A DNA stretch of 64,000 nucleotides from Clostridiales bacterium (GCA_012841525.1 DUUO01000015.1:18924-82923), one strand, 5' to 3'; shown: positions 28,678 to 34,600, numbered from the stretch's first letter. The notes: generated by a model from the sequence alone, not told the origin. Made by a program: numbers and translations.

Positions 28678-31600
28678 TTATGGATATATCTCATTTTCTG
28701 GTATTTCTGATAGAGTGTAGCCAATAAAATCAAAGTTTCTATATTTATATAAGCCAAACTCTGAAATCGTTGCTTTTATATCGTTAAATTCCATTTTCAT
28801 AGTATAACAAGAAACATCATTATAATAAGAACCTTCTTCATTACTATAATTATAATTTACAATCCAATTATCCTGATTCCCATATTTTTCTGGCAAATAG
28901 AAAGTATATTCATTATTATCAATATAAAAATATACTAGGGTACAATAAATCTCACCTGAAGCATACTCTTCTACAAGGCCATTTGGCAACGAAGCTGCAT
29001 CTACAGTAATTTCTTCTCCTAAAGATATTTTAATAGTATATTCAACATCTGGACTTAAAGTTATTGGTATATTTTGCACCACAGAAGATTTAATAACTTC
29101 TACAATAGACAAATTGCCTTCTTCATCAACTTCTTCTTTTCTCATAACACTTTGATAACTAAATTTAATAGATGTGCTTGACAAATCAAAGGTTAATTTA
29201 TTGTTGTTATTTATAATATCTTCTAAGATAATTGTTGATTTTGCATTTTCACCTTCGCTGTCAATTTTATATTTAAAGTTAGCGTACCCAGTTTCTAGTA
29301 TATCTCTTTCAGGAGTTTTTCTAAATTCTTCTATTTCTTTAGTTGTGCCTAAAGCATCTATTTGTGTTTCTTTTGATGCTTCAATTAAGTCTTCTCCATT
29401 TACAATTAATCTGTTTTGATTAACATCATGTGTGTAATTAAATATAACATCTTTAATTATTGCTCTACCAAAAGCAAAGTGTGCCTCAAATGTATTACTC
29501 AAAGTTGATGCTATATCATTCAATAAAGGAATTCCCAAAATCTTTATATTATCTTCATATAATACTAAACTTAATCCAGTTTCAGTTTTTAATATAGTTA
29601 TTTGATAATCTTTTTGTGCTTCAAAATCGATGTTTTCACTTAATTTATCATATTTATTACCATTTTTATGATATATGCCAGGTGCATTTTCGTCATCAAC
29701 ATACAATGTATTGCTTATTACTATAGCGGAATTTGTAGCATTATTTTTAAATAACATTATTTCAAATTTTGTACGCTCTTTTTTAACTTTAAATTCAACA
29801 TCGTAGTTTTTCAAGCCATCTGGATCATCTGGGTTGGTAGGTCTGCCAATTAATGGGTTATCGTTTGATACATTTAATGAATCAAATAATTTAAATGTCA
29901 TAGACACGCTTGAAACATTTTGTTCTGATGGTTCAAATTTAAACGTTCGCCCCATATCTTCCCCAATATTTAATTCTCCATTATCGCTAGTGTCAGGATT
30001 TACAATATTAAACCTAGGAGCATTAAAGTCACTTCCAAGTAAAATTTTATTATCTGGATCATTATCTAAATAATAGTAGAGGTCTGAATTGTAATCTGGG
30101 TTAGAATTTTCTAGTTGACCGCTAGTTATTATATTATAATATTTGAGCCACCTATAAGTTAACAATTCTTGGCTATTTCCGATTGACATATCTCCATCAA
30201 AATAAAATGAATTTGCTTGTGGATTAACCTTTATAGTTCCGTTTGCATCATTAGTATAAGTGACTGAATAATCAAAGTATTTATTATCGTTTGTATTGCC
30301 AGATTGATAATAATAAGCATATGCTAAAAGTCTATCAATCAATACAAGTTCGCTACCTTCTTCCTTGTAGGCATATATTTCTAATTTGTTTGCACCAAAT
30401 TTTAAATTGAATGAAGTTAACGATTCATCACATTCTTCACCGTTTAAGTAATACTTAAGTGTAACATCTTGTGCAATTAAGTCTTTATTTATTACTTTGT
30501 CATATCCTAAGCTAGCATTTTTTACAATTGAATTAAATTCAGAAGAAAGAACTAATTTAGATCCACCAACATCATAAAATCCTTGATTCGCTAAAGACAT
30601 TCTTACAATTTTTATATCTAAATTTGCACTTAAAACACCAATACCAACGGGATCTGGATATACTGTTGTGGGCTCTATTCCTTTATTGAAGTACATTTCT
30701 GTTTCGCTATTTTCTTTGAAACTTAAATAAATTAAATTGTTTAGGCTAATTGCATTTGTTTGACTATTATCAACATCAACATATATCATCATATTTGCCT
30801 TATCATGGTAGAAATTAAATGTATGCAAATAGCCATCAAAAATAGAATGTATTACAAAAGGCATAGAATAATATATTTGTTCTATTTCAATAAAGTCACC
30901 ACCATCTTCTAATTCGTAATAAACTCTATGTTCTAGTACAAAGTCTTGGCCGTTATCCAAATAATATTTATCATACACTTTATCGTTATTGTCCATTCTA
31001 AACAATAAAACTGAATGCTTTTTCTTTCTTGTATAACCAGGGTATTTTATGCTAGGCTCATTTACATCTTTAATAAAATGACCTAACACAAAACCTAAGG
31101 CAATTGACTTTTCATTGTCTGCAATTTTTTTGGCAGAAAATGTAAAACTTAATTTATCATATATTTCCGATCTTGCTACATCATTGTCAAAATCATATGC
31201 TTCAAAATATTTATCATATAATGATGAACTATCATCTTCAAGTACATGAGTTAGTTCTCTCATTCTATAAGGAATTGAGTCTCCTAAATACTCTTTATTT
31301 TCCATATCTTGCATAGTTTGACTGGTCTTTTCCTTAAATATTAATGGCAACATTTTTTCCATAGAAAGCCTTTCAGTTGTAAATGTTTTCCTTATATATT
31401 CGGCAGGCATTGTACCATTAAACAGAAAATAATCTGGATAGTCCGTTGCTGTTTCTAAAGCATTGTCATCAAGATATTCATTACTCTTAAACTTTAGTAT
31501 AACTGGATATACTGTATTAATTGTATTAGGTGCTATGGGCTCCAATGAAAGATTAGGATATTGTTTATTCCCTAAATTGAATTTATATTCTTCTCCTATT

Positions 31601-34600
31601 TCAAAATTATCAACGCCCCCGCTTAAATATTGGTTATAAAGCCCTTCAGAATACGAAGTATCAAACACATAAAATGGGAATTTACTTCCTGATTGCCAAT
31701 CATTATAATTTGAATCATAAAATATCTCTTTTCTTGTGGGCATAATATCTGCAACTTGATATACATATTCCACTTCTGAATCAGAAAATTCTACAATTTG
31801 ATCTGGCACTACATAGTTACTTGTTGGAGAAAAGTTTGAAACAGTAACTTTCCAACCTGTAGAAGTTTTTTCAACATAAATTTTATGATTAAAAAATATT
31901 TCTTTTTTATTAATTTCTTTAAGTATTTCTACTCTCCAATCATCTCCATTAATATTTTCGTATCCTACAAATGAAGATTCTCCAACATAAGGTGATATAT
32001 CAAGATTAAATCCTCCCCTATCTAAAATATCTGAAGTTTCGGAATGTAGTTTTTCATCATATGCAGCTTCAGAGCCATCAATAAAGACAAAGTCCATAGG
32101 GCCATATGTGCCACCAATAATTTTATAATTTTCAAAAATGAATTCGGGTTCAGTTTCTTCATCCTGCGGTTCTTTGATTTTTAAAAGAATTTCTGATAAA
32201 TATGGGTATATTGTCATATCTGAAAAACTTGCATAAAATCCATCATTTGTATAAAACGAAAAGGCAGTTTTAAGTTTTTCAGGATTAATTCCAATTTTAA
32301 CTACTTTTTTATTTGTTTTAAGTGTAGTACCATCCAATACTATTGCTTGATAGTTTAATAATGTTTCATCAGAATCTAGGGCATTCCAAGTCATATCTGT
32401 TTGACTAACTGGTTTGGCGGTAAAAGATGCCACAGAATACAAATTAAATTTAGGTGCATTTTGTTTACCTGGTTGCAAGTTAACACTTGGATTTAATAAC
32501 TCTTCATCCCAAGATGCAAAACCTTCATATGTTATTTTATAAGCATCGTTATTTGAACCCTTAACCCCTGAAGGATTATCAAAAGTTCCATATTCTACCG
32601 TCATTCCTTGTTTGCCATCTAAATCTGTAACAGTTAAATAAAGTTCTTTTTTGGTTATTAAAACTTTATATCCATCTGGATCAAAATTAAATTTATAGTT
32701 TTTAGCAACAATCTCATCTGTTCCAATCATATTTGTTAATATTAAAAATTTATTTCCTAATAGGCCTGCTGATGTTCTCTCATCTAAGACATCTGAGTCT
32801 GTTGCATTTTGGTCTATAAATATATTTGAATTTTCTGATATGCGTCCAATTGAAGGACTTAGAACTCCTTCTTGATTTAATTTATATAGCATTACATCGC
32901 TAGACTCTCCTAATGGGAGATTTGGAAAATTAAATCTCAAATTAAATGATTCTGAATATTTTCTTGAAATAGCATTACCCGCTTGCAACTCAATATTAGC
33001 AGTTTCTCTTGAAACTCTTAAAATGCCTGGAATTATTTTTACATCATAGTTTGTAGCATTAAAGTCTTCTGCAACAATTACATAATCATCACTATCAATA
33101 TTAGATTGCCCATATTTATCATCGAGATTACCTTCTTGATATTCAGATTTTAAGTATAAGTGATAAGAAGCACCGTTTGTATTAATAATTGAGTTAATAT
33201 AGTCAGAACCTACATTTTCAGTTAAAAACTTTTTTTCTCCAAAAAAGCTAATTAATTCTTCATCAGTCACACTTTCTGTACCGTGAATATTATTGTAATA
33301 TTCAATTGCTAAAAGTTTATCTTCTTGATTTGAAAGATCTAAATACCTATATTCGTTTATCATGCTTGCTGAAATAGGTGTACCATATATCAAATTGCCT
33401 TCAGCACCAACATCAAGCATCACTACAGTTATATTATTTTTTTCGATTATAAGCTTTGGATTGGGGGTCGAAGGATGTAGGTCTATTATATATTTTTGTG
33501 AATATAATTCATTTAAAATCATTGCTTCTATAGACACATCATATGTTCCGCAATTAAGATTAAAGCCCAAAACAGTAGGATCATTTGGATTAAATAATGA
33601 TTGTTCTATATAGTTTCCATGAAGATCATATACTTCAATAGAAAAATTCACATCTTGTTCTTCAACGACTGTTCCGTATTTCACGGTTTTATCATCAATT
33701 TTCAATAAAACATGTTTTCTAATTATTACTACTGATGAATTTTCGCTCCATGTATATACTGTGTTATATCCATGGCTGTCAAAAGTAAAACTAATAATTT
33801 GATCAACTACAAAATTAGGGTTTTCACCTTCTATAAAATGCTCTTTATACTCTGCTTCATTAAATGTAAATGAAATATAGTTGTTTTCTCTATCCATTAT
33901 CAAATTAGCCTGATTAACATGTAGTAGTAATTCATCAAATTTATTTTTCATTACATCATGACCTTGGTTATATAAATCAGATATTTCATCAATCCTGCTT
34001 CTTACAATATTTAATTCCTCAAATAATTCATCTGAAATGTCTGAAAAATGATAATAATAAATAATATTTGTTTCAGTTGCAATGTCATTGATTGCTGTTT
34101 TAACAGAACTTATCCCATTAATTAAAGCCTCTTTTGATCCTCGTAAATTCAAAGCATAAAAAGTACTTCTTACTCTAGCAACACCATTAGTCAAAAGACC
34201 AAGCCTGTTAATATGCTCATTTTTCTCATCTTCTCCAACAAAATTACGAATTTTTGGTGGTATTGCTTCGGTAAAAATAAAATCAGTTGGCAATAAAAAT
34301 GGAAGATTTGGATTTCCTTCTATGATTTCTTTTTGCAAAGGATTATATAATTGCGTTTTATTCAGTCTAGCAACTCCAGTCGTTTGTAATATCGTAAACA
34401 CATAATCTTGATATAATTTCACATAATAATTAGGATTTAAGCTTACAGCACTAACTTGATATCTTCCTGCATCGCTGTTTGCTCTATTGTCATTTGCTTC
34501 TCTAGAAAATACAAATCGAATATTTTCATTATTTAGGATTTCACCTTGAACTGTGCCAGTAATATTAAATTCTTTAATAAAAGGCGGTGCTCCATTATAT

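Follow-up and report, generated by a model that had tools for sequence, protein, structure and literature searches.

The giant lipoprotein gene

The window analysed here is a stretch of 64,000 nucleotides (nt) from a Clostridiales bacterium (GCA_012841525.1, DUUO01000015.1:18924-82923), AT-rich with 26-32% GC. On its minus strand, positions 28678 to 41034 hold a single intact open reading frame (ORF) of 4,118 codons, a lipoprotein gene that stays open in 28% GC DNA, and the subject of this report is the C-terminal region of the encoded protein, a non-repetitive head that follows a long stalk. We propose, with a probability of about 0.45, that this region forms the end of a giant surface lipoprotein that lies farthest from the membrane, and that this tip is made of concanavalin A (ConA)/LamG-like jelly rolls and captures a ligand that is probably a glycan. 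The 4,118-amino acid (aa) protein of the window is referred to as P0001 and its two homologues as P0003 and P0005; the parts of the region are listed in Table 1.

The gene probably starts with the ATG at 41019, which lies five codons downstream of the GTG (41034) that opens the longest ORF; both homologues begin at an equivalent MKKK sequence followed by a lipobox. This start gives a protein that begins MKRK and carries a predicted lipoprotein signal, MKRKILLTITIIIFIVALSLVLFAC, with the lipobox LFAC. Read by eye, the pattern [LVI][ASTVI][GAS]C was found in P0001 in this signal, and equivalent LLFAC and LLASC sequences were found in the homologues. The database version of the protein (P0002, 4,092 aa) begins 26 codons further in, where the signal peptide would be lost, and its start is probably a gene-calling error.

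Two Pfam families scored above the gathering threshold in P0001, Big_3 at aa 48-110 (63.6 bits, cut-off 21.2) and MBG_2 at aa 1744-1815 (36 bits, cut-off 25), and both are located in the stalk, outside the head. A profile of the Pfam-positive MBG_2 module detected MBG-like repeats weakly and only at aa ~1360-2550, with none at aa 2795, and an NCBIfam scan of the whole protein recognised no family. No LPxTG motif or hydrophobic anchor could be read at the C-terminus. Since the protein is lipid-anchored at its N-terminus and has no C-terminal anchor, the C-terminus should be free and membrane-distal. Within the stalk, a helix-rich insert was observed at window 33880-34290 (-), aa 2249-2385, with a significant alpha-type hydrophobic moment (z = 2.8 against shuffles), and the flanking beta regions differ from it.

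Extent and parts of the head

A sequence-only reading of this DNA had described the last ~1,300 aa as a non-repetitive head beginning at window position 32600, directly after a last MBG-like module, and had proposed that three segments of the head adopt LamG-type folds. All 13 peptide strings that it quoted are present at the coordinates it implied: the module string KKELYLTVTDLDGKQG lies at aa 2795-2810 (window 32605-32652), and the three segments lie at aa 3295-3481, 3711-3866 and 3919-4096. The repeats do end in this area, but a border at 32600 cuts through an MBG-like module that runs to about aa 2890. This module was missed by Pfam and by the MBG_2-module profile, and was recognised by eye from the pattern K-K-x-L-x-L-x-V ... 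Y-G ... Y-x-I-x-Y-x-G-F that is usual for MBG. As judged by eye from this motif pattern, the non-repeat head probably starts near aa 2891, window ~32364.

The absence of repeats from the head was borne out for both protein and DNA. When seven head segments were compared pairwise by hhalign as 3-sequence profiles, all probabilities were 1.6% or less, so that no internal repeats were found, and no direct DNA repeat of at least 40 nt involving 28678-32600 was present anywhere in the 64-kb window. The latter result excludes a nearby template repeat of the kind used by diversity-generating retroelements, and the head was therefore rejected as a target of such an element. No paralogue of the head is present elsewhere in the 1.52-Mb genome, and the head is unrelated to the other giant lipoproteins of the window (1,282 and 2,018 aa), for which the best phmmer E-value was 0.004 in a 5-sequence database and hhalign gave no confirmation.

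Several parts of the head contain conserved sequence in the 3-sequence alignments. The conserved blocks of the proximal head are YKIIGGTYGPMDF, FNHKIxVxKxxTGWKVxVS, LPLIFKE and MQD, and the proximal head gave no Pfam or PDB match. The conserved core of D1 consists of DGYxHxxNxxxDK...DNS and G(I/V)L...D(I/L)xIxR(M/L)S. The middle region, Dm, has indels among the homologues and a sub-threshold match at aa 3520-3561 to the Pfam Cadherin-like beta sandwich family PF12733 (E 0.007-0.048).

Table 1. Window coordinates of the giant gene and of the parts of its C-terminal region.
Feature	Window position	Strand	Residues (aa)	Description
Whole gene	28678..41034	(-)	4,118 in total	Lipoprotein, counted from GTG 41034, longest ORF
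Last MBG-like module	32365..32652	(-)	2795-~2890	ITKKELYLTV...VEYGTFDN...YKITYEGFASWD; read from sequence
Proximal head	31165..32364	(-)	2891-3290	Conserved blocks in 3-sequence alignments; no fold assigned
Segment 1 / D1	30580..31164	(-)	3291-3485	Beta-rich candidate jelly roll, weakly modelled
Middle region / Dm	29950..30579	(-)	3486-3695	Small predicted beta sandwich at aa ~3520-3605, then an indel-rich variable stretch
Segment 2 / D2	29425..29949	(-)	3696-3870	Best-modelled ConA-like candidate, 11 strands; ends in FGRAIIKDVIFNYTHD
Linker	29290..29424	(-)	3871-3915	Predicted DSSP helix at aa 3898-3915 (EIEEFRKTPERDILETGY), low pLDDT
Segment 3 / D3	28735..29289	(-)	3916-4100	ConA-like jelly-roll candidate, 10 strands; ends in KATISEFGLYKY
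C-terminal tail and stop codon	28678..28734	(-)	4101-4118	FDFIGYTLSEIPENEIYP; read from sequence

Predicted structure and fold matches

The AlphaFold2 program was run on 3-sequence alignments of aa 3270-4118 and aa 2795-3292. The model of aa 3270-4118 is almost purely beta: DSSP assigned 10-11 strands to every one of the three segments and just two helices of at least 10 residues to the whole model, one of which is the linker helix (model residues 629-646). The modelled strands number about 10 in D1 (aa 3294-3479), 11 in D2 (aa 3696-3868) and 10 in D3 (aa 3917-4092), and a smaller sandwich was modelled at aa 3524-3603. D2 and D3 are the segments that reach a predicted local distance difference test score (pLDDT) of about 65-80, with values of 68-79 over aa 3759-3849 in D2 and 55-81 over aa 3919-4049 in D3, whereas Dm is mostly below 50. 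The first half of D1 (aa 3310-3389) has a pLDDT of 51-75 except for a low loop at aa 3350-3359 (pLDDT 28). In the fold of the concanavalin A-like superfamily, about 12-14 antiparallel strands within about 150-200 aa form a jelly-roll sandwich of two curved sheets, and the low-confidence model gives 10-11 strands per segment of 175-195 aa.

A Foldseek comparison of this model with the PDB gave seven matches at E <= 1e-3, and the top 50 were nearly all ConA-like jelly rolls. The best matches were to laminin-511 LG1-3 (5xau, 2e-5), the Gas6 LG pair (2c5d, 2.7e-4) and the tandem galectins 2wsu and 3vkl (~9e-4), and were followed by laminin alpha2 LG1-3, carbohydrate-binding modules (CBM40 and CBM66), GH16 enzymes, sialidase lectin domains and SPRY domains; the list also has jelly-roll halves of binding domains of the clostridial neurotoxin family. 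The same theme was found in BFVD, with E-values down to 2e-6, where the matches included a galectin-domain adenovirus fibre, SPRY and phage proteins annotated as 'Concanavalin A-like lectin/glucanases superfamily' and 'LamG-like jellyroll'. We give the ConA-like result some weight, short of proof, because an ill-defined beta sandwich should match some of the thousands of immunoglobulin (Ig) chains in the PDB, and this one did not. It is thus plausible from the model that D2 and D3 are ConA/LamG-like jelly rolls at the level of fold, although the jelly-roll fold of the tip is to be held with low confidence.

A different explanation is that the C-terminal domains are structural sandwiches of some other topology (Ig-like, cadherin-like or a new fold) that lengthen the stalk or close its end and do not act as lectins; the ConA-like matches would then be an artefact of a poorly constrained model. 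The low confidence of the model, TM-scores of 0.47 or less, the uniformly negative LamG sequence tests given below and the weak Cadherin-like match in the middle region all fit such an explanation. Its difficulty is that most of the annotated BFVD matches, like the PDB top 50, are ConA-like, that domains of ~175-195 aa with 10-11 modelled strands are twice the size of an Ig module, and that evolution is faster in the distal domains than in the stalk, unlike what plain spacers would show. We regard it as doubtful, though far from negligible.

In addition to the TM-scores, which come with high root-mean-square deviations, several features of the structure prediction and of the sequence comparisons weigh against a tip of ConA/LamG-like jelly rolls. 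The mean pLDDT of the aa 3270-4118 model is 46.7 and the predicted TM-score (pTM) is 0.31, and models of such low confidence can yield meaningless matches. The low TM-scores and high deviations are due partly to the comparison of a three-domain model with targets of one to three domains that are otherwise arranged, and partly to the poor quality of the model. D1 is poorly modelled, with a pLDDT of 24-48 in its second half, which is the best-conserved stretch of this domain. The prediction for aa 2795-3292 was a complete failure (pLDDT 28).

The sequence comparisons were also negative. In all three homologues, the whole length of the head was without a significant Pfam, NCBIfam or PDB sequence match, and when Pfam was searched by hmmscan with the whole protein, five head pieces and all three homologues, no LamG family (PF13385, PF02210, PF00054) scored above noise. 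Genomes of the same class supplied 30 domains for a Laminin_G_3 alignment; hhalign of D1, D2 and D3 against it gave probabilities of 0.2%, 2.0% and 0.5%, the sensitivity being limited by 3-sequence profiles and unused secondary structure, and hmmsearch with the corresponding profile gave domain scores of 1.4 bits or less, inside the range of 200 shuffled heads (maximum 5.2). The conserved galectin signature (H-x-N-P-R, W-G-x-E-x-R) is absent from the heads of the three homologues, and no binding-site residues were identified in the head.

The head therefore falls outside the Pfam LamG families as judged by sequence. The best value for any of them was that of Laminin_G_2 (E 0.098-0.12, 13 bits, cut-off 22.9) over ~100 residues of D3 in P0005 only, a weak hint of a LamG relationship. 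A six-frame search of this genome for PF13385 gave no match at E <= 10. By contrast, a sample of 200 genomes from the same class contained 48 with matches above the cut-off, and some of these carry more than 15 copies. On visual inspection, a pair of strands in each segment resembles the LamG W-x-H...L-Y-x-N-G, and the segment ends LDIKIVRMS, IIKDVIFNY and ATISEFGLY resemble the last LamG strand, G-x-(I/L)-D-E-(V/I)-R-I-Y; this likeness is a lead only. The alternating-strand pattern on which the three LamG-type segments had been proposed gave beta-moment z-scores of 0.4-2.2, and because a known Big_3 control failed as well, these values discriminate nothing.

Among the weaker database values, those of Cadherin-like (0.007), DsbG_N, VtrC, DIX, Lipocalin_4 and similar Pfam/NCBIfam families were taken as noise, and the PDB sequence/profile matches Tni2 (E 0.15) and Der p 2 (E 1.2) were dismissed as due to chance. 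A search of the head for the DxDxDG motif found none.

The GH16 structures among the Foldseek matches (E 0.02-0.05) raise the further question of whether part of the head acts as an enzyme, be it a GH16-like glycoside hydrolase or lyase with the ConA fold or another catalytic domain in aa 2891-3290, where the conserved blocks include charged residues; glycan-degrading enzymes are also encoded in the neighbourhood. These matches rank below the lectin-type matches, and no Pfam/NCBIfam enzyme family matched at E <= 10. The GH16 motif (E-x-D-x-(x)-E) is not conserved in the three homologues: the expression E-[ILV]-D-[IVAF]-[VILMF]?-E did not match strictly in any of the three heads, and no looser match was conserved among them. 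With no GH16-type or other conserved catalytic signature found, we consider an enzymatic head very unlikely.

The proposals of the sequence-only reading thus fared unevenly. Of its three possible LamG jelly rolls, segments 2 and 3 may have a ConA-like fold according to the low-confidence model, segment 1 was poorly modelled, and the sequence tests were negative. The structure prediction and Foldseek comparison that it had suggested gave an all-beta model with ConA-like matches at low confidence for aa 3270-4118 and failed for aa 2795-3292, and the suggested profile-profile comparison with Laminin_G_3 gave no signal. Its view that the head is the part most likely to be novel holds for the sequence, and probably does not hold for the fold.

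Homologues and divergence

Only two collinear homologues of the head were found, and both are equally giant proteins. P0003 (4,075 aa, 51-55% identity in the head) was the only non-self match when 5.8 billion protein clusters were searched with a word index, and P0005 (3,904 aa, 29-33% identity, collinear over the whole head) was added by an exhaustive HMMER search of 1.84 billion representatives in which the last 1,200 aa were the query. Searches started from P0005 and from a 3-sequence profile gave no further homologues. Among 61 related genomes, the head is present only in one other species of the same genus, the metagenome-assembled genome 'Clostridiales bacterium AS21ysBPME_203' (JAAZJD010000004); two metagenome contigs hold near-identical copies, and L003-L006 are nearly identical to P0003.

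The proteins P0001, P0003 and P0005 can be aligned end to end, and the distal domains diverge fastest. Dm, D2 and D3 share 45-47% of their residues with P0003 and the stalk shares 56-70%, and the corresponding identities to P0005 are 23-31% in the distal domains and 36-42% in the stalk. The best-conserved piece of the C-terminal region is the last MBG-like module, which is 70% identical to that of the congener. In D3, two Cys residues at aa 4030 and 4075 (SGEIYC..., ...VSCYTMKM; window 28747-28950 (-)) are kept in P0001 and P0003 and replaced by Tyr and Val in P0005; they could form a lineage-specific disulfide, or this pattern could be a coincidence.

Within 5.8 billion protein clusters, relatives of the proximal head are confined to the three giant proteins, which are orthologous. 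In a more speculative reading, the proximal head (aa 2891-3290, perhaps with D1) would have an undescribed fold or activity, and the whole head would be a lineage-specific device that docks these small-genome digester bacteria onto a partner cell or onto a particulate substrate rich in N-acetylhexosamine (HexNAc). We think this reading as a whole improbable.

Gene neighbourhood

Upstream of the giant gene, on the same strand, are genes for a 448-aa protein that matched no Pfam family, a sugar symporter of the MFS_2/GPH type and an FGGY sugar kinase. Also encoded on this strand of the window are a Big_3 lipoprotein (1,282 aa), a GH20 hexosaminidase, citrate synthase, an MBG_2 protein (2,018 aa) and a GH123-family enzyme. 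The block at window 41431-62834 reads RAYT-like, MFS_2, FGGY kinase, 1,282-aa lipoprotein, GH20, citrate synthase, ~2,000-aa MBG_2 protein and GH123. In the congener, ORF sizes and order match this block through the ~2,000-aa protein, as judged by ORF sizes only and over a compared stretch that ends before GH123. Because the block is collinear in the congener, the three giant lipoproteins appear to be a stable feature of the genus, and because the sizes and order of the ORFs are the same, the giant gene appears to lie in a stable chromosomal region and not in a mobile island.

The presence of GH123 and GH20 genes in the same conserved neighbourhood is the reason for proposing a HexNAc-containing glycan. 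The glycoside hydrolase genes lie 10-30 kb from the giant gene, with the RAYT-like and citrate synthase genes between, and this distance and the intervening genes make a functional link circumstantial, which detracts from the case for such a ligand.

The neighbourhood also bears on whether the head would bind a protein or the surface of another organism's cell, for attachment or co-aggregation in digester flocs, and no free glycan. LamG/ConA-like domains often serve protein-protein contacts, and the laminin and Gas6 LG domains among the fold matches are binders of protein receptors. Moreover, a 1.5-Mb genome invests in three giant surface lipoproteins (4,118, 2,018 and 1,282 aa) in one region, and the sequence of the head is strongly lineage-specific. 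No partner can be named for such binding, however; the neighbouring genes concern sugar use, and most bacterial ConA-like modules of surface proteins bind carbohydrate. A protein or cell-surface ligand in place of a glycan is on balance unlikely.

Downstream of the giant gene are a solitary tRNA-Glu gene (anticodon CUC, window 28438-28512 (+)), on the opposite strand and 166 nt past the stop codon, and a 606-aa ORF. Elsewhere in the window, a 748-aa ORF (9107..11353) contains at least eight tandem copies of a 39-nt unit at 10460-10959 (+), which encodes a 13-aa repeat with 61-86% identity, and in the intergenic DNA upstream of the ORF at 7388..8977, a 17-nt unit, ATATTGAAGTTTTCATC, occurs in tandem about 6-7 times at 7149-7267.

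A model of the tip and its relation to known systems

The reading that we prefer, a ligand-capturing tip, can be set out as a model. The host, an anaerobe with a small genome (1.5 Mb, 28% GC) that is probably monoderm, would hold the giant protein by its N-terminal lipidated Cys. A stalk of ~2,800 aa, made of Big_3 and MBG-like beta modules, would then present the non-repetitive head of ~1,230 aa at its far end. Along the head, the conserved ~400 aa of aa 2891-3290, for which no fold was assigned, would be followed by the beta domain D1, by a small Ig/cadherin-like sandwich with its variable stretch, and by D2 and D3, the better-supported candidates for ConA/LamG-like jelly rolls, with a short helix between them. 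The tip of this fibre would capture a ligand, probably a glycan that possibly contains HexNAc, for adhesion or substrate capture. A glycan-binding tip is suggested by the combination of an N-terminal lipid anchor, a long stalk, a faster-evolving head with lectin-type sandwiches and a HexNAc-oriented neighbourhood; glycan binding and the identity of the glycan are what we infer from this combination, whereas the intact gene, the anatomy of the protein, its isolation in sequence, the absence of repeats from the head, the kept gene order and the faster change of the distal domains are shown. The ligand-binding tip that the sequence-only reading had envisaged is likewise plausible from the topology of the protein and its gene context.

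Adhesins of the stalk-and-tip type whose heads are ConA-like, LamG or lectin domains occur commonly among bacteria, and a literature search for MBG/Big_3 lipoproteins gave nothing relevant. The three candidate domains resemble the LamG/Laminin_G_3 (PF13385) modules of bacterial surface proteins in their size, their low-confidence all-beta model and their Foldseek matches to LG domains and to phage proteins of the 'LamG-like jellyroll' type, but the head has no detectable sequence relationship to these modules and PF13385 is without a match in the host genome. For single domains, Foldseek matched best to tandem-repeat galectins, the CBM40 of clostridial sialidases and CBM66 (probability 0.96-1.0, TMt 0.26-0.47), and two tandem ConA-like sandwiches joined by a linker, as predicted here in a low-confidence model, are an arrangement that the head would share with tandem galectins and CBMs. 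It differs from galectins, CBM40 and CBM66 in that it lacks the galectin signature and has an identity of 8-16% to them, with E-values of 1e-3 to 6e-2 that come from the low-confidence model.

The adhesins Aap and SasG, which have an L-type lectin A domain, also present a non-repetitive lectin-like domain on a long stalk of repeated beta modules, and the Aap A domain (8deo) was among the Foldseek matches (rank 33, probability 0.15). Aap and SasG have an N-terminal head and a C-terminal LPxTG anchor, whereas here the lipid anchor is N-terminal and the head C-terminal, and the stalk is made of Big_3/MBG_2 and not of G5-E modules. The protein is also similar to the surface glycan-binding protein (SGBP)-type lipoproteins of polysaccharide utilisation loci, in that a lipoprotein with putative carbohydrate-binding modules is encoded near GH123, GH20, symporter and kinase genes. 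It is unlike them in that there is no SusC/SusD pair and no polysaccharide utilisation locus of the Bacteroidota, the giant protein is ten times larger, and the linkage is loose, with unrelated genes interspersed.

A ConA/LamG-like tip is an ordinary design for a bacterial adhesin, and the head would be a very divergent case of a known type. What is unusual in the giant protein is its sequence isolation (three proteins in public data), its polarity and the conserved proximal region of ~400 aa, which resisted every method used and is the one part that could really hold something new. Sequence orphans limited to three public proteins can still adopt a common fold. If the tip is of the lectin type, this would identify the working end of the largest protein in an uncultured anaerobic-digester lineage with small genomes, and recombinant D2-D3 would provide a handle on what the cells stick to or feed on.

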